From a virus (Duplodnaviria; Caudoviricetes): 64,000 nucleotides of DNA. Under the pieces are notes generated by a model. That model was given only the letters and a program-made list of their open reading frames with translations, was not told the origin of the DNA and searched no databases. Shown piece by piece: positions 56,954 to 64,000 of the stretch (within the stretch, counting starts at the first letter, position 1; the number at the start of each line of letters is the position of its first letter). The DNA lies in IMG/VR virus record IMGVR_UViG_3300030376_006203, positions 64,001-128,000 of that record; one strand, given 5' to 3'. The translations under genes and the position numbers were made by a program.

Positions 56954-57069
56954 AGTCTTGCCCTACTTTTTACTATTTACCGATTAGAAAGCAAATATAA
57001 AGCAGGTATTCATAGTATAGCAGGTCTAATTTTGGTTGTCAATCTTTTAATTGATGGTGTATTTGTGCC

Positions 57070-57077
57070 TATAAATA
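57070..57077 (+). promoter_or_regulatory. T4-type late promoter
   Basis: Exact TATAAATA 11 nt upstream of ATG 57089; the TAAATA core precedes many other genes. Confidence 0.7.
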
Positions 57078-57088
57078 CATATATTATT

Positions 57089-57367
57089 ATGAACTTTTTA
57101 CAATTTGTATCAGAAGTAGGATTTCCAATAGCAGGTGCTGTGGCATCTGGTGTGTTCATATTCATCATTTTAAAATTTATATTAGCCACTGTGACAGGGT
57201 CTGTGAATGGTCTTAAAAACATCATTAAAGCACTGGACAACAGAGTTCAGACCATGAACAATGATCTAATTAAGATTGATGCTTTGCTTTCACACGTGAC
57301 TGGAGTCAAACCCAATGTTGATAGACTTGCCGCCAACGAAGGCAAGGAAGATGCGAGGAAAGACTAG
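57089..57367 (+). CDS. small single-TM protein, paralogue A
   Basis: VGFPIAGA TM, then ALDNRVQTMNNDLIKID. Confidence 0.7.
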   Translation: MNFLQFVSEVGFPIAGAVASGVFIFIILKFILATVTGSVNGLKNIIKALDNRVQTMNNDLIKIDALLSHVTGVKPNVDRLAANEGKEDARKD

Positions 57368-57634
57368 ATGATCACACTTGAATTTGCCAACGCAATCAAA
57401 GAATTTGGATTCCCTATTGTAGCCGCATTTGGTTTGGGTTACTTTGTTTACTATGTGTGGACTTGGGTAACCAAAGAAATAAAACCTGTATTGGGCGAAG
57501 CCAACACAACACTGATAGCACTCATAGATAGAATAAGAATGTTAGACAATGACATGATACGTTTAACACAAAAGTTAAACATGGTGCTTGAACACAAAGA
57601 AAAGCAAGACAAGAAAAAATCTAAGAAGACTTAA
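57368..57634 (+). CDS. small single-TM protein, paralogue B
   Basis: FGFPIVAA TM, then ALIDRIRMLDNDMIRL. Confidence 0.7.
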   Translation: MITLEFANAIKEFGFPIVAAFGLGYFVYYVWTWVTKEIKPVLGEANTTLIALIDRIRMLDNDMIRLTQKLNMVLEHKEKQDKKKSKKT

Positions 57635-59552
57635 CAGTATATACTTTAATATTCTCAGTCTTACCTTTGACTGTGATGCTGTCTATATAATCAAACGGGT
57701 AAACAGTTTCAATGGTGTGTCTTGTGTCCTCACCTATCACTATGGTCTTGCCTAATGTTTTGCTTGAACTTTCTAATCTACTTGCTAGGTTAACTGCGTC
57801 ACCAATCACTGAGTAATCAAATCTCTGTTCCGATCCCATGTTACCAACCAATGCGTCACCTGTATTGATTCCTATCCCTATGTTTATTTGAGGAAGTCCT
57901 TCTGCTTGAAGACGTACATTTAATTCTGCTAGTGCCTTAGTCATCTCAAGAGCACTCTTAACTGCCATCTCTCTATGTTTTTTATTTTCAATAGGTGCGT
58001 TCCAGAATGCCATGATACAGTCACCCATGAACTTGTCTATGGTTCCACCATTTGATATTATCACATCTGTCATGCGTGTTAAGAATCTGTTAATCAATTT
58101 TGTTAGTCCTGCTGGATTGCCTTTGTACTTCTCACTGATAGGTGTGAAGCCTCTGATGTCACAGAACAAGAATGTCATGTTCCTTGTTTCGCCACCCAGT
58201 TTCAACAGAGATGGATCCTTCTGTAATTTTTTAACCATGCCAGGATCAAGATAGTGTTCAAACTGTTTCTTAATTTGTTGTCGCAGTCTGCTCTGTGTGG
58301 CAAAATTATTGTACACAGAATGAGACCAAATCAAAAACACAGACAACATTATCCAAGATGGATCTACAAGAAATCCTCTGTTGGTGTATGCCATGAATGA
58401 TCCGTAGGCAACACCTACTTCCACAAACAACAATAGAGGCACAGCCAACAACACACTGGTTCTAGGTAATACCATTATCAACAATAATAGTAACAGTGCC
58501 ATAAACACAATTTCATAAGTGTCTGCTTGAGGTGTACGCAACAAATATTTGTCTGTGAGTAAAGTATCTAATGCTTGGGCAGTTATGTTCTGATCTGTTG
58601 TAAGTCCGTGTGGTGTATATTTTAACACACTCAATCCCGCGGCATCTAAACCAACAATCACAATTCTATTTTTTATTTTGTTTTCATTGTAATTGCCTGA
58701 AAGAATATCACTTGCTGTCATATTCACATACATTGTAGGATCAGCATAGTTGATATACATTTCTGCATGATGATTCACAGGTATGCCTGCTTTTTTACTC
58801 ACAAGCACTTCATCTATGCCATGTTGTTTGGCTACAACTTTAATTCTTTTTGAATTGTTTAACAACCTAACATTTTCTAATATCATGCTGGGATAAATTT
58901 TTCCATTTATTCTAATCAACACAGGCATTTTTCTTACCACAGCATCTGGTTCTGGTGATGTTACATTTACTCCCATACCAGTGGCACCTGCTGAGACTTT
59001 TGCGTGTGGAGAAACAATGCCACCAAACTCATACAACCATGGTTTGACATTGCCCTTTTCGATAATCTTTGTGGTGCTGGGTAAATTTGTATCAGACTCA
59101 TTTTTCACACTCATCATGAGTACTGCTTTATTTGATTCTTTCAACACTATAGAAAACACAGCATCTGTATCCAATAAAATATTACTCAATTGATCCCGCA
59201 CATCATTAGTCATGGGCATTGATTTTAAATATTCAACGCCACTCATTCTATCTGGTTCAGCAAATAATATATTGTAGTTCACAAGTATGGCACCAGCATC
59301 AGACAGTTTAGCATGAAGCATAGCCATTATGTGTCTGGGCCATGGCCATTGCCCATATGTTTTTAAATCTTGTTCTGTGATGTTTACCACAGTGACTGAA
59401 TCACTTACAATCTGTCTTGGTTGTATTGTTTGAAATTTGTCCCATGTCTTGTATCTTAAAATTTTTATTGTGTCACTGTTGTCTATTCTTATTCCAGTCA
59501 ACACTATGGCAAACACAATCACCATCCATATGCTTGTTAAAAATTTATTCAT
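57621..59552 (-). CDS. CHASE2-domain class III adenylate cyclase
   Basis: GQWPWPR, FAEPDR and DAVVRK.P (CHASE2); three TMs; FCDIRGFT, DKFMGDCIM, GIGINTG, RFDYSVIGDAVNLASRLE and VKGK. Confidence 0.93.
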   Translation of the reverse strand: MNKFLTSIWMVIVFAIVLTGIRIDNSDTIKILRYKTWDKFQTIQPRQIVSDSVTVVNITEQDLKTYGQWPWPRHIMAMLHAKLSDAGAILVNYNILFAEPDRMSGVEYLKSMPMTNDVRDQLSNILLDTDAVFSIVLKESNKAVLMMSVKNESDTNLPSTTKIIEKGNVKPWLYEFGGIVSPHAKVSAGATGMGVNVTSPEPDAVVRKMPVLIRINGKIYPSMILENVRLLNNSKRIKVVAKQHGIDEVLVSKKAGIPVNHHAEMYINYADPTMYVNMTASDILSGNYNENKIKNRIVIVGLDAAGLSVLKYTPHGLTTDQNITAQALDTLLTDKYLLRTPQADTYEIVFMALLLLLLIMVLPRTSVLLAVPLLLFVEVGVAYGSFMAYTNRGFLVDPSWIMLSVFLIWSHSVYNNFATQSRLRQQIKKQFEHYLDPGMVKKLQKDPSLLKLGGETRNMTFLFCDIRGFTPISEKYKGNPAGLTKLINRFLTRMTDVIISNGGTIDKFMGDCIMAFWNAPIENKKHREMAVKSALEMTKALAELNVRLQAEGLPQINIGIGINTGDALVGNMGSEQRFDYSVIGDAVNLASRLESSSKTLGKTIVIGEDTRHTIETVYPFDYIDSITVKGKTENIKVYTVKSS

Positions 59553-59914
59553 CCTAATTCTTTCAGTCCTTCAAGTATGCCAATTGATACGCCAAAGAAC
59601 AGTGAAAGTCCTAACATTATCACAGGACTTAATAACCACAAGTACCAGTAGTAACGAAATATATTCTGTCCTCTTGCCAATCTTATTTTACGTTGATCCA
59701 AAAACCAATGCACTATTCTTTTTATAAAGCCTTTGATATGTTTGTTTACAAATTTATTCAACAACCAACGTATCACTCTCATCACAATCAGTATGGGAGA
59801 ACTCAGCACATCAAACACAATCAGGAACACATCAACACTGAAGTCTACAATGTTGTCTGCTGTGCAGGCTTTCTTCCATCTCTCTTTAAGTGTAAGTTTC
59901 TTTTGTTCTTCCAT
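59549..59914 (-). CDS. membrane protein
   Basis: Two hydrophobic segments; coupled between HlyD and the cyclase. Confidence 0.65.
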   Translation of the reverse strand: MEEQKKLTLKERWKKACTADNIVDFSVDVFLIVFDVLSSPILIVMRVIRWLLNKFVNKHIKGFIKRIVHWFLDQRKIRLARGQNIFRYYWYLWLLSPVIMLGLSLFFGVSIGILEGLKELG

Positions 59915-59915
59915 T

Positions 59916-60641
59916 TTATCTTTCTTGTAGTGCTTGACCAATGCTGTTATGGAATGGTGTTGTAATATAACTTAAAATTGTTCGCTCTCCAGTCAAAACA
60001 AAAACGTGTACCTGTACACCCGGCACCAACTTATACTGCATTTCTCCATTGGCAAAAGCCTGAGAATCTAATTCTAATTCTATTTCATAGTAAGACATTG
60101 TTTGTTTTTGTACAGCATCAGGCGATATAGATATTATCTTTGCTCCTATAGGAAGATATGTAAATGCTTCAGAACTTGCCAATTTTATTTTTGCTGATTG
60201 TCCTACTTCAACATAACCTCTGTCTTTAACTTGTAATTGTCCTTGAACAATTAATTTTTGATCTAGTGGTACCAACACTGCCAAAGCATCACCTTGTTTA
60301 ACAACTGATCCTGGATTTTTAAACGTAAGTTCTTGTATCTTTCCATCTATGTTTGCTTTGATATGATAAGGTTCATAGCCTACACCTGGATTGATTGTGA
60401 TTATGATGTCGCCTTTGTTGACCACATCTCCTTGTTTGTGATTTACTTTTACAATCTCTCCTGTAACCATGGTGCCAAGTGTTGTAATATTTTTCTCAGG
60501 TACAACCAGTCCATTGGCAACAGTGGTTATGTCAACTTTAGAAAATGACATCCACACAAAGAACACAACAAATAGACTTGTCAACAAGACAAAGAATTTA
60601 TTGTTTGATGAAACTGATGATTTCTGTTGTTGCTCTATCAC
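59916..60641 (-). CDS. HlyD/AprE-family T1SS membrane fusion protein lacking the alpha-helical hairpin
   Basis: N-terminal TM, lipoyl halves GDVVNKGDII / IKANIDGKI, ISPDA and LVPG...TGERTILSYITTP...ALQER; GTG start after AAGGAGG. Confidence 0.85.
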   Translation of the reverse strand: MIEQQQKSSVSSNNKFFVLLTSLFVVFFVWMSFSKVDITTVANGLVVPEKNITTLGTMVTGEIVKVNHKQGDVVNKGDIIITINPGVGYEPYHIKANIDGKIQELTFKNPGSVVKQGDALAVLVPLDQKLIVQGQLQVKDRGYVEVGQSAKIKLASSEAFTYLPIGAKIISISPDAVQKQTMSYYEIELELDSQAFANGEMQYKLVPGVQVHVFVLTGERTILSYITTPFHNSIGQALQER

Positions 60642-61350
60642 GTTGTTTTATTGCCTCCTTTGCTTTGGCATATTTGTTAGCACCTTGCAGTGCTCTTGCC
60701 GCCAATATGTTTGAACCTATTAGTAGTCCCACATCCAATGAGCCTGCGATAATTTGTGTCGCACCTACTGACATAATAACCACTGTCATAAGTCCTGTTA
60801 AAAATATTTCTAAATTTGTTGTGCTGTGAATCTGCAGGCTTAGGTTCATTCGTTGTGCTGTCAACACTATCATTATAATCATGAATATAGCCGCAATTAT
60901 TGCCGCTGTCCAATTTATGTACAGCAACACAATAAGAAATGCCAACACGAATGGCCAATCTAGAATCCAACCGGTTGTGGCTGATGTCCTCATATTTTTT
61001 ATTGTTGTGCCTGCACCATCCAACTTTTTATATTGCTCGGCTGTGAGTTGTCCTGCTTTGCTGAATTTTTCTCCAAATGCTTTCAACAGAGGATCGTAAA
61101 CACGTTGGTTGTGTGCTGTCATCATTGCGCCTCTATTCTGTCTGAATCCAAATTCAAACGCCAGCAACATAATGGCTCCCATAGCCAAAGATATTAATGT
61201 TGATGTAACTCCTGATGCTAGATATTTGTTTAACACAATTATCACAAACAACGCAGGTGCCAAGGCACAGATGTTGATGATCAAACTGCTTGTTAATAGC
61301 ATTATAGCATTCGATTTATCGCGGAATAACTGTCGTAAAAAACTTGTCAT
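60598..61350 (-). CDS. T1SS ABC exporter transmembrane domain only (no NBD)
   Basis: S.IINI.ALA.ALFVI.VL, TL.SL, FEF.FR, LD.PF and G.L.VG.LIG.NILA.RAL (LapB/LssB-like); ends just after TM6. Confidence 0.8.
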   Translation of the reverse strand: MTSFLRQLFRDKSNAIMLLTSSLIINICALAPALFVIIVLNKYLASGVTSTLISLAMGAIMLLAFEFGFRQNRGAMMTAHNQRVYDPLLKAFGEKFSKAGQLTAEQYKKLDGAGTTIKNMRTSATTGWILDWPFVLAFLIVLLYINWTAAIIAAIFMIIMIVLTAQRMNLSLQIHSTTNLEIFLTGLMTVVIMSVGATQIIAGSLDVGLLIGSNILAARALQGANKYAKAKEAIKQRDRATTEIISFIKQ

Positions 61351-61378
61351 ATATAGTAGTATTTAATTGATTTGGTAA

Positions 61379-63115
61379 TTAAAGAAGTGGGTCCACAAGA
61401 CCTAACACCTTGTGCAGTTGATATCTAGCAATCTGCCAATCTATCAATGCGTTGGCATAGGCAACTTCACTCATTATGTGTGCTGTCTTCATGCCAAACA
61501 CAGCCATGATAGGTGAATTTCCTGCTTGAAAATCTGCCAGTGTCAATTTGTACATTTCATCGTTGATTTCAACTGTTCTTTTCAAAGTAGCCAGATTCTT
61601 TTCAACCAACACATAATTGTTCCAAGCATTATCAAACTGTTCTTGTGTGGTTCTTAACACATCCGTATATCTAAAGTTTGCGGCATTCAAACGAGAACGG
61701 TCTGCGTTTGTCAAGTGTCTGTTTTTAAAATTAAACAGTTTCCATGTCATTGTGATGTCTGCTCTCCACTCTTCTTTTTGTGAATTATGTGTGTCATAAC
61801 CACCACCTAGTTCACCGTCCTTCTCTGTGTATGAAAGTTTGCCGTCAACTCTAGGTTTGAATTCCGCACGGTCAAAATTTAATTGTTCTTGAGCAATCGT
61901 GATATCCATGCTGGCAATACGCAGTGTGGTATTATTGGACACTGGAGTTCCTTGTACAGGAATCATGCCCAATGCATCCACTAAAGGTTTTGGCATACCT
62001 GCGATGTTGTGTGGCTTGAATCTCCAAACGTTTTGGAATCTCTGTATCGCACTATCAAGACCTAGTCTGCTTGTCATTGAAAGTGTTTGATATGTTCTGT
62101 ATTGTTGTTCTATTTGCAGTTGTTCCAATTTAGAACCTTCACCTTTTTTAACTTTTTCTATTGTCATAGCAAGTGTAACTTTAGCATTGGCTTCTACTTT
62201 TTTATTGGCTTCGTGTGTGTTGTATGCTTTCATCAAGTTTAACCAAGCATTGATTGCCTCAATGATCACATCTTCTTTTACCAGTTCTAATCTGTAGTGT
62301 GCCTGTTGAGCAGTTGCTTTGGCTTTGTCTATCATGGCATTGGTTCTGCCTGCGTCCCAAATCATTTGTGTGATTGTGATTGACTTTTGAATACCTTGTT
62401 TAGAATCATGTGTGATTGTGTTGTTGGGATATGTACCTTTAGCAGGAGTTCTGTCGTCTTCCCAGTTGTTGCCAATTGATATAGAAACTTGCGGATAGTA
62501 TGCTGTGTATTCTGATTTGAGTGCCTCAACAGCCGCTTCGTAATCAAGTTCTGCCGCTTTGATCTTTTCGTTCTCAACAATCAGTCTTGGTAACAATTCA
62601 TGAAACTGCATCCATGTAATTTTTTGATCAGCATCAACATCAGCCCATTCTTTTTCAGTAGCCTGTTCTACCAATTTCTCATCTGCTTTGGCATCTATTT
62701 CTTTTTTAGCAATTTCTTTTTTTACTTCAGGCTTCTGTGTTTCTTCAACAGATGTTTCTGCCAGTTTCTTTTTCTCAATGTGTTCTTTAACTTTGTCTTC
62801 TGTTGCTATTACTTCTTTTTCAATTTTTTCTAACTTTTCTACCTTCTCTGTGGCTTTGGGAGCCTCTTCAACTTTGTCTTTGAATTTCTTTATGGGATTT
62901 TCTTTTTTCTTTTTGGGTGCTTCAACTATCTCTATGGTTAATCCTTCCACAGGTTTGGATCTAATCCTTGCTTGATTATCACCACACTTCTCTTGGATAT
63001 AAGTTTCTGTTTCCTCAACCACTTCCCATTCACAACCTCCACTGTCTTCCGCAAAGACGGCTATGTTCCAATTGAACATAATTGCTATCAAAATGTAGTG
63101 TACGAGTTTGTTCAT
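61379..63115 (-). CDS. tolC: TolC-family outer membrane channel with N-terminal E/K-rich extension
   Basis: Signal peptide; YYPQVS, ITQMIWDAGRT, KGEGSKLE, FKPRVD, WKLFN, FQAG.SPI and YQL...LG repeats. Confidence 0.85.
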   Translation of the reverse strand: MNKLVHYILIAIMFNWNIAVFAEDSGGCEWEVVEETETYIQEKCGDNQARIRSKPVEGLTIEIVEAPKKKKENPIKKFKDKVEEAPKATEKVEKLEKIEKEVIATEDKVKEHIEKKKLAETSVEETQKPEVKKEIAKKEIDAKADEKLVEQATEKEWADVDADQKITWMQFHELLPRLIVENEKIKAAELDYEAAVEALKSEYTAYYPQVSISIGNNWEDDRTPAKGTYPNNTITHDSKQGIQKSITITQMIWDAGRTNAMIDKAKATAQQAHYRLELVKEDVIIEAINAWLNLMKAYNTHEANKKVEANAKVTLAMTIEKVKKGEGSKLEQLQIEQQYRTYQTLSMTSRLGLDSAIQRFQNVWRFKPHNIAGMPKPLVDALGMIPVQGTPVSNNTTLRIASMDITIAQEQLNFDRAEFKPRVDGKLSYTEKDGELGGGYDTHNSQKEEWRADITMTWKLFNFKNRHLTNADRSRLNAANFRYTDVLRTTQEQFDNAWNNYVLVEKNLATLKRTVEINDEMYKLTLADFQAGNSPIMAVFGMKTAHIMSEVAYANALIDWQIARYQLHKVLGLVDPLL

Positions 63116-63134
63116 TATATACCTATATTTAGCA

Positions 63135-64000
63135 TTATCCAGAAACCACCACTTCTGAGATCAATGCTGACTCTGTCTCGATCAGTGCGTAGTTGATGTC
63201 ATCAAATTGTGAGAAATTACTCAGGTCAAGATATGCGTTGTAGCCTGTGGTGTTTGCGACCGTGACTGTGTTGCCGATCTCCACTGACCAACTGCCACCG
63301 CTGTATGTGACCGGTGTCACTTTGAAAGAGTAGTCGCCTGTGGCATCAGAGTCCTGTGTCAGATAGTCCTCTGAGTCATCCAGGATCTTGATCTTGTCCA
63401 GATTGAAAGTGTCAGTGGTCTCCCAAAGGTCACCGTCTCCGTCCCTATCGTATCCTATCACACCATAGTGGTCATCCGCCTGTGTGGGTGTTGGTCCGGC
63501 GTCCATGTCTGTGTTGAAGGCCCAATATACAGAGTCCGCCGAGTCATCCCACACAAGGTCAATGTGGTCCATACCACCACCGATGTACACGTTGTTGCCC
63601 AGGTGTATGGCCTCAACAGCGGTGATGTCGTTCTCTGCGGTGTGCGTTCCTGAGCCAACTGTGTCTCTGAATACTGGAATGAATTCCGAGTCAACCACTA
63701 TGCCTGCACCGTCGGATTCTGTCATTGCGTCCTCGTTCTGTTCTTGAAGCCACGTGGCAATTTCCTTGTGGTGATTCGTACTTCCGATGTAACCCGAAGA
63801 ACTGTGACCGTCGATGTCACCCCAGGCAAGGAATGTTCCTGTGTATTCTGCTTCTGTGTCCTCTCTGCTCCATTCCGCTATCGCACCCTCATTGCCGTCA
63901 CCGTTTGAGGAAACTAGATCTCCCCTACCCATGTATTCCTTGTGATAGACTGATGTGGAACCTCCCACAGTTGCACTCAACACACTATTGGTGTCACTCC
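63135..64000 (-). CDS. C-terminal part of a large acidic D/G/T-rich protein (5' end off window); candidate secreted substrate/adhesin
   Basis: Frame is open to the window edge; DRDGDGD Ca-binding-like motif; visibly higher GC than the rest of the window. Confidence 0.65.
   Translation of the reverse strand, partial: SDTNSVLSATVGGSTSVYHKEYMGRGDLVSSNGDGNEGAIAEWSREDTEAEYTGTFLAWGDIDGHSSSGYIGSTNHHKEIATWLQEQNEDAMTESDGAGIVVDSEFIPVFRDTVGSGTHTAENDITAVEAIHLGNNVYIGGGMDHIDLVWDDSADSVYWAFNTDMDAGPTPTQADDHYGVIGYDRDGDGDLWETTDTFNLDKIKILDDSEDYLTQDSDATGDYSFKVTPVTYSGGSWSVEIGNTVTVANTTGYNAYLDLSNFSQFDDINYALIETESALISEVVVSG

Follow-up and report, generated by a model that had tools for sequence, protein, structure and literature searches.

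The 64,000-nucleotide stretch analyzed here, hereafter the window, comprises positions 64,001 to 128,000 of IMGVR_UViG_3300030376_006203, a 148-kb virus record in IMG/VR. On its minus strand is a co-oriented cluster of genes that encode, in order, a 1299-amino-acid (aa) protein with FecR and cadherin domains, a 578-aa TolC-family protein, a 250-aa membrane protein, a 241-aa HlyD-type adaptor, a 130-aa membrane protein, and a nucleotidyl cyclase with a CHASE2 sensor domain. The 250-aa protein, on which this analysis centers, is the transmembrane domain (TMD) of an ATP-binding cassette (ABC) exporter, cut cleanly at the boundary between the TMD and the nucleotide-binding domain (NBD) and lacking the domain-swapped cytoplasmic arm formed by transmembrane helix 4 (TM4), intracellular loop 2 (ICL2), and TM5. 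Its gene is listed first; the other features follow with the description of the cluster.

60598..61350 (minus strand): mini-ABC TMD, the membrane domain of a PrtD/LssB-type exporter of type I secretion systems (T1SSs), assigned from the open reading frame (ORF), NCBIfam, an AlphaFold2 (AF2) model, and fold matches

Architecture and fold of the mini-ABC protein

The ORF begins with ATG and encodes 250 aa, which hydropathy resolves into three hydrophobic hairpins (residues 17-69, 128-165, and 181-222) corresponding to six TM segments, with periplasmic loops of 4-8 residues and cytoplasmic portions rich in lysine and arginine. An AF2 model built on a 62-row family alignment has a mean predicted local distance difference test (pLDDT) score of 84.6 and contains helices at residues 12-46, 50-98, 104-145 (kinked at 120-124), 147-170, 174-201, and 207-249. 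Hydropathy and model agree on the six TM segments that a sequence-only reading of this DNA had proposed. The same reading had estimated about 16 residues for the connection between TM4 and TM5 and about 29 for the distance from TM6 to the stop codon, and these lengths prove to be 15 (residues 166-180, QRMNLSLQIHSTTNL) and 28, respectively.

Established protein families recognize the TMD only in part. No Pfam family matches it at E-values up to 0.1, and ABC_membrane (PF00664) reaches approximately 8 bits against a cut-off of 28. The best NCBIfam match, LssB (TIGR03375, E 6.9e-21), covers only model positions 140-304 of 696 and scores 74 bits against a cut-off of 693; PrtD (TIGR01842) scores 40.5 bits against 510, and the HlyB family is likewise matched far under its cut-off. 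Among PHROGs, the TMD matches an ABC transporter family, through the membrane part alone. Because a phmmer search of PDB sequences (E up to 1) was empty, profiles and fold comparison were needed to link the TMD to solved exporters. The top Foldseek matches of the model are HlyB (8DCK, 7SGR), PrtD (5L22), and PCAT1, and in VIA-align all 250 residues align with the membrane domains of ABC exporters at Z 19-21. The individual alignments include HlyB chain 8dck_A (Z 19.8, root-mean-square deviation [rmsd] 3.4, 250 residues aligned, chain range 140-450, or 311 residues) and PrtD chain 5l22_B (Z 18.9, rmsd 3.5, 243 aligned, chain range 13-314, or 302 residues). As modeled, the protein has the six-helix membrane fold of a type IV exporter.

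When two copies were predicted together, the TMD passed the mark for a dimer with a score of 0.59, compared with 0.00 for the best control; among proteins solved as one-chain pairs 20 of 30 reach this mark, and among those solved as single chains 1 of 23. At least 89% of contacts are shared between runs, and the partner pLDDT is at least 75. In the predicted assembly, TM5 (176-201) packs on TM1 and TM2 (29-74) of the opposite subunit and the two TM6 helices meet (211:211), which is the arrangement seen in ABC exporters. This outcome may in part reflect likeness to solved exporters and is a prediction rather than proof of dimerization.

Portions of the exporter that are missing and retained

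Relative to its nearest full-length relatives (550-570 aa, 30-39% identity over TM1-TM4), the TMD displays a single 56-column gap, located between TM4 and TM5, and its C terminus falls right at the start of the NBD linker. In the Pfam ABC_membrane model, matches are confined to positions 111-166 and 234-271, leaving 167-233 uncovered. The structural alignment to PrtD and HlyB, which the sequence-only reading had named as the way to check its claim, skips approximately 60 residues in both targets, since the 250 aligned residues span 311 in HlyB and 302 in PrtD, and it reveals no intact coupling helix in ICL2. Missing from the protein are the cytoplasmic extensions of both TM4 and TM5, coupling helix 2, and the entire ATPase, while the arm consisting of TM2, ICL1, and TM3 is kept, together with the extension of TM6. 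Residues characteristic of T1SS exporters are also kept, namely the LDxPF motif at TM3 and G..LIG.NIL..R in TM6.

The proposal that both the NBD and the NBD-coupling loop had been lost is thus borne out for the NBD and ICL2 and does not hold for ICL1 (residues 70-127), the region of the first coupling helix. ICL1 is retained in length, with a gap of 5 residues relative to full-length relatives, and is helical in the AF2 model. By per-site entropy it is the least conserved part of the protein, whereas TM6, periplasmic loop 1, and TM1, TM3, and TM5 are the most conserved. This pattern, as read from the alignment, fits a protein that has lost a cytoplasmic motor or partner and has kept a function in the membrane or on its periplasmic side.

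No separate ATPase came to light. The 250-aa protein contains no NBD with Walker A, Walker B, and signature motifs (no ABC_tran match). A hidden Markov model constructed from the NBDs of 40 relatives, used along with Pfam ABC_tran, found no NBD in the 148-kb record, retrieving only a clamp-loader-like P-loop protein. The same search of five related viral records gave nothing above the cut-off, and at about 20 loci there is no NBD gene beside the TMD gene.

A selected short-form family

The short form is shared by a large family. A word-indexed search yielded 838 homologues of the TMD, the best 120 of which are 234-253 aa long (almost all 249-251), are 76-99% identical to it, and come from marine metagenomes, on contigs of up to 229 kb. 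An exhaustive search of representatives at 50% identity contributed further clusters of 247-257 aa at 64, 45, 40, 39, 37, 36, and 29% identity. In alignment, all short-form clusters, down to 27-29% identity, have the identical gap and the identical end point. Two candidate members were dropped upon alignment, P0216 for its unrelated C terminus with an ILV_EDD_C match and P0227 for its missing TM3 and TM4.

Among unsaturated pairs compared by the Nei-Gojobori method, the ratio of nonsynonymous to synonymous substitution rates (dN/dS) of the TMD is 0.05-0.15 at dS 0.78-0.93, similar to those of the neighboring adaptor (0.06-0.09) and TolC (0.06-0.11) genes. Given such ratios at a dS of roughly 0.8-0.9, the short form is under selection rather than decaying. 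Nor is it a recent truncation, since relatives down to 27-29% identity share its length, deletion, and end point, and close relatives are short rather than full-length genes. Two proposals of the sequence-only reading are thereby upheld: that selection and not decay underlies the short form, and that deletion of the loop goes with loss of the NBD. Throughout the short-form family the losses of NBD and ICL2 coincide, and both coincide with a third loss, that of the hairpin from the adaptor.

The surrounding gene cluster

The remaining features of the cluster, from the upstream end, are as follows.

63135..64000 (minus strand): C-terminal part of the 1299-aa acidic protein P0121, whose gene continues past the window (full ORF L012:636-4535:-)

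63126-63131: second copy of the TAAATA motif, before the TolC gene

61379..63115 (minus strand): TolC-family outer-membrane factor, 578 aa (Pfam OEP 3.5e-51; TIGR01844 over residues 182-572)

61360..61365 (minus strand): TAAATA motif, 15 nt before the TMD start codon, resembling the core of a T4-type late promoter

59916..60641 (minus strand): HlyD-type adaptor, 241 aa, with TM, lipoyl, and beta-barrel parts and without the alpha-helical hairpin (TIGR01843 and alignment)

59549..59941 (minus strand): basic membrane protein, 130 aa, with no Pfam or NCBIfam family

57621..59552 (minus strand): class III nucleotidyl cyclase with a CHASE2 sensor, 643 aa (CHASE2 2.1e-39, Guanylate_cyc 1.4e-22)

The adaptor gene begins with GTG behind an AAGGAGG site, and its first 44 nt are shared with the 3' end of the TMD gene. 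TIGR01843 matches its product only at the N-terminal part of the model and at positions 272-422 of 422, and alignment with bacterial HlyD proteins of 427-437 aa shows a gap of 186 columns that corresponds to the entire alpha-hairpin. The most divergent short-form locus (L017:1705-3349) encodes a 257-aa TMD with 5 extra loop residues and a 292-aa adaptor whose hairpin is short, at about 55 residues; its contig, of 4.5 kb, could be from a phage or a cell, and the locus looks like an intermediate in the reduction.

The phage TolC carries an N-terminal extension of approximately 150-180 aa (residues ~25-180) that is rich in lysine and glutamate. Every phage copy seen (578-617 aa) has it, and the bacterial counterpart at locus L082 (429 aa) does not. 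Conceivably, this extension might stand in for the missing adaptor hairpins.

In P0121, Pfam identifies FecR at residues 43-139 and Cadherin at 757-840, which are separated by a long helical region rich in glutamate and lysine. The C-terminal domain has a higher GC content than the rest (0.46-0.53 vs ~0.36 elsewhere). Relatives of P0121 match different parts of the protein at very different identities, and the gene gives the impression of being modular and of having a distal end that can be exchanged. The protein has no signal peptide and is the candidate cargo or tethered ligand of the system.

The start of the cyclase gene overlaps the stop codon of the gene for the 130-aa protein. In tblastn searches, the latter protein is found at 69-72% identity in most close relatives (L004, L005, L007, L008, and L011); no match was obtained in L006, L009, L010, L026, L027, L013, L014, or L017, and it is absent from divergent members. 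Convergent on the end of the cyclase gene from the opposite strand are two adjacent genes for small membrane proteins (57032-57367 and 57368-57634, plus strand), whose products each have a TM helix preceded by an (E)xGFPI motif and look like paralogues.

The order of the cluster is repeated in eight viral contigs, in a 229-kb contig, and in two contigs of a metagenome-assembled genome (MAG) labeled 'Rickettsiales'. Wherever the flank suffices, a short TMD is followed by a hairpin-less HlyD protein of 235-242 aa (or, in the most divergent case, by the 292-aa form with a short hairpin) and then by a CHASE2 cyclase, which comes after the mini-HlyD gene at all short-form loci whose sequence extends that far. 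Divergent short-form members (28-42% identity) also have a short adaptor and then the cyclase.

Over the minus strand of the window, 15 of 58 gene starts have a TAAATA at a distance of 8-45 nt upstream, compared with 1.1 expected at random positions. The full T4 late promoter TATAAATA is not enriched there (1 match vs 5.3 expected). From its distribution, TAAATA is probably the late promoter core of this lineage.

The phage record and its relatives

CheckV estimates the completeness of the 148-kb record at 41%. Nearly all of its genes lie on one strand and include those for ribonucleotide reductase (RNR) subunits, DNA ligase, UvdE, DNA polymerase B, and tail-fibre-like proteins; the RNR large subunit is ~70% identical to its counterparts in Pelagibacter myophages and cyanomyophages. 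This gene layout, gene set, and RNR identity point to a large marine T4-like myophage. The record is a fragment of a larger genome, since it contains no match to gp23 and since a related contig that carries the same gene module measures 229 kb.

A set of genes that are cell-like auxiliary genes resides upstream of the module (L012:5324-8722; G000 ~131.8-135.2 kb), encoding two 2OG-Fe(II) oxygenases, a DUF454 protein, a class I/II aminotransferase, and an AlgH-like DUF179 protein; a DUF179 gene also adjoins the module in the 229-kb contig.

Against deposited phages, blastn with the cluster gave zero matches. With the TMD and adaptor as queries, tblastn of the same set found only full-length T1SS genes, in records of Acinetobacter phage MD-2021a, plus a few unrelated records; the short forms of TMD and adaptor were not found by tblastn in any cultured phage. 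Two contigs of the MAG 'Rickettsiales bacterium MED657' (L026 and L027; NZHE01000025.1 and NZHE01000018.1) carry the whole module in phage-like surroundings, with a TMD identity of 63%. They are probably phage contigs binned with the bacterium, and the binning may hint at a host.

Bacterial counterparts and origin

In a scan of one genome per prokaryotic species, the short form appeared only in these two MAG contigs; the other 78 loci are full-length and belong to Rhodospirillales, single-cell genomes of Pelagibacteraceae, Magnetococcales, Zoogloea, and Desulfobacterota. The full-length relatives reside in T1SS operons of the usual kind, which encode a giant cargo, an ABC protein, and an HlyD of 437-494 aa. 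Many Rhodospirillales loci combine an FecR-type N terminus with TolC. The locus in a Desulfovibrionales MAG (L082) encodes a 429-aa TolC, a 924-aa FecR/cadherin/RTX protein, a 559-aa ABC protein (ABC_membrane plus ABC_tran), a 427-aa HlyD, a glycosyltransferase, and a 732-aa CHASE2 cyclase; the cyclase is encoded at L069, L071, and L075 too. Because several bacterial loci carry the whole module with full ABC and HlyD proteins, the phage cluster is, as judged from gene content and alignment, a reduced derivative of a bacterial T1SS-plus-CHASE2 system. In Burkholderia operons, too, periplasmic proteins with FecR domains are linked with CHASE2 sensors (PMC5192318).

The closest full-length bacterial relatives (P0137, P0140, P0142, P0143, P0147, and P0148) have an ABC signature of the form L[SA]xGx (for example, LAVGV or LSLGI) where LSGGQ is expected, and in two of the six the histidine of the H-loop is replaced. 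The ATPase site may have been unusual as early as the ancestral subfamily.

Possible roles of the reduced pair

The account that we lean toward, with some reserve, is that the mini-ABC protein and the mini-adaptor form an ATP-independent base for a TolC-linked surface protein and a cyclase. The mini-ABC protein would keep an exporter-like homodimer in the inner membrane of the host, and this dimer would pair with the co-reduced, hairpin-less adaptor, whose gene comes next and overlaps that of the TMD. In combination with the phage TolC, dimer and adaptor would then constitute an inner-membrane base that acts as an anchor or a passive gated conduit and not as a pump, serving the FecR/cadherin surface protein, whose gene lies upstream, and the CHASE2 cyclase, whose gene lies downstream. 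The choice between scaffold and channel, which the sequence-only reading also named, and true independence from ATP are both matters that we infer, as is the role in display or signaling.

Several considerations weigh against such a base. With the record 41% complete, an NBD gene elsewhere in the genome is possible, and since ICL1 retains the length of its first coupling-helix region, a free or host NBD could dock weakly. P0121, which has no signal peptide, needs a route across the inner membrane, and a conduit without a motor has no demonstrated energy source. There is also no evident way for an inner-membrane pair whose adaptor lacks the hairpin to reach TolC.

If the remnant still passes or anchors the 1299-aa protein, it would be a natural test of what a T1SS membrane domain can do without ATP, with transport conceivably powered by an external folding ratchet, by the proton-motive force, or by a motor borrowed from the host. 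If it transports nothing, a transporter would have become a scaffold with ties to a CHASE2 sensor. In a specific form of the latter possibility, which we regard as unlikely while giving it real weight, the stripped pair is the inner-membrane foot of a trans-envelope sensor built by the phage. The cadherin-type protein would be outside the cell, held in the phage TolC, with its FecR domain in the periplasm and positioned against the CHASE2 domain of the cyclase, such that cAMP would report events at the surface (contact, other phages, or particles).

Unlikely as well, but deserving of similar attention, is that the mini-ABC protein still belongs to an ATP-driven machine, either through an NBD encoded elsewhere in the phage genome or through mixed complexes with host T1SS ABC and HlyD proteins that would redirect the host pump to the phage TolC and cargo. 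The incomplete record, the retained ICL1, and a cargo without a signal peptide are all compatible with this, and full-length ABC/HlyD pairs from the same subfamily occur in candidate host groups such as Pelagibacteraceae and Rhodospirillales. Their identity of 26-33% is, however, low for mixed dimers. Moreover, the main cross-subunit dock for the NBD, ICL2, is deleted; ICL1 is the region least conserved; and no NBD was found in the 148-kb record or beside the gene at any of the ~20 loci.

Decidedly improbable is the notion that the pair forms an envelope-permeabilizing or small-molecule channel late in infection, contributing to lysis timing, depolarization, or the release of cAMP through TolC rather than to a cargo route. 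Late-promoter-like TAAATA motifs precede both the TolC and TMD genes, an exporter dimer deprived of its NBDs has no motor to control gating, and the link with the cyclase is invariant, all of which such a channel would accommodate. Yet the bacterial clusters from which the module descends are regular T1SS operons whose cargo is a FecR/cadherin/RTX protein, and the cargo gene is still present in the phage; TM6 and other T1SS hallmark residues are conserved, and no lysis genes were identified adjoining the module.

Less probable again is that the mini-ABC and mini-HlyD proteins are poison subunits that block host type I secretion during infection. Inner-membrane components without motor or hairpin would be classic dominant negatives and possible hosts have related systems, but their proteins are only ~26-33% identical to those of the phage, and this explanation does not account for a phage-encoded TolC, cargo, and cyclase in conserved order. 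That the TMD gene is a functionless, decaying remnant or a recent truncation, as its scores under the Pfam and NCBIfam cut-offs might suggest, is contradicted by an architecture that 838 homologues share, down to 27% identity, by a dN/dS of 0.05-0.15, and by a start codon, a stop codon, and a downstream gene overlap that are all conserved.

Comparison with known systems

In the literature searched on phage T1SSs, phage CHASE2 cyclases, and NBD-less ABC exporters, nothing relevant was found, and no paper on a motor-less T1SS ABC protein, from phages or otherwise. Papers on pelagimyophages and methylophages describe phage CsgGF curli genes and not a module of TolC, mini-ABC, and mini-HlyD. The gene content observed here would suggest that large marine phages remodel the host envelope with a TolC-based assembly of their own.

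Membrane domains that resemble those of ABC exporters can work without an ATPase of their own, and the precedent is provided by SbmA and BacA, which are proton-driven peptide transporters related to ABC exporter membrane domains and have no NBD. These proteins differ from the phage TMD in that they are larger, are importers, and are unlinked to HlyD or TolC; the phage TMD has no match to their family (Pfam, E up to 0.1). For the adaptor, an analogous precedent is BesA of Borrelia, a periplasmic adaptor that naturally lacks the alpha-hairpin and yet functions with a TolC-like channel. BesA, however, serves a resistance-nodulation-division (RND) pump with a large periplasmic domain, whereas the inner-membrane partner in the phage has almost no periplasmic mass.

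Several members of the short-form family are labeled 'LapB' by JGI, and in the LapA/LapBCE adhesin T1SS there is likewise a giant surface protein with cadherin-like repeats beside genes for an ABC protein, a membrane fusion protein (MFP), and an outer-membrane factor (OMF). By analogy with LapA, the N-terminal domain of the phage cargo could be retained on the periplasmic side. P0121 gave no match to a LapA-type retention module (in NCBIfam, only coiled-coil-type matches), having instead the Pfam FecR domain at residues 43-139. Unlike LapA/LapBCE, the phage system has an ABC protein without an ATPase, and its regulator is a CHASE2 cyclase. That cyclase is the sole signaling gene among the scanned neighbors, where no LapD or LapG turned up, although no dedicated search for them was made.

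The closest known systems in gene content are uncharacterized bacterial clusters of TolC, FecR/cadherin/RTX protein, ABC, HlyD, and CHASE2 cyclase (L082; L069, L071, and L075; and, to a partial extent, Rhodospirillales loci), which are gene-for-gene counterparts of the phage module, the FecR N terminus included. The bacterial CHASE2 cyclase is ~30% identical to that of the phage over its full length. Unlike the phage module, these clusters have a full ABC protein (559 aa), an HlyD of 427-430 aa with its hairpin, a TolC without the N-terminal extension, and an inserted glycosyltransferase.

With the T1SS exporters PrtD, LssB, and HlyB (TIGR01842, TIGR03375, and TIGR01846; PDB 5L22, 7SGR, and 8DCK), the phage TMD has in common the fold (Z 19-20), the hallmark residues, the operon partners (an HlyD-type adaptor and TolC), and, by prediction, an exporter-like dimer. 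Those exporters are 540-700 aa long and include the NBD and the ICL2 arm with its second coupling helix, whereas the phage-encoded TMD, at 250 aa, has neither and scores far under the family cut-offs. What defines type I secretion is an ABC ATPase together with adaptor hairpins that bridge to TolC; abundant phages of the ocean have removed exactly these two elements, and selection has long kept the membrane cores that remain.

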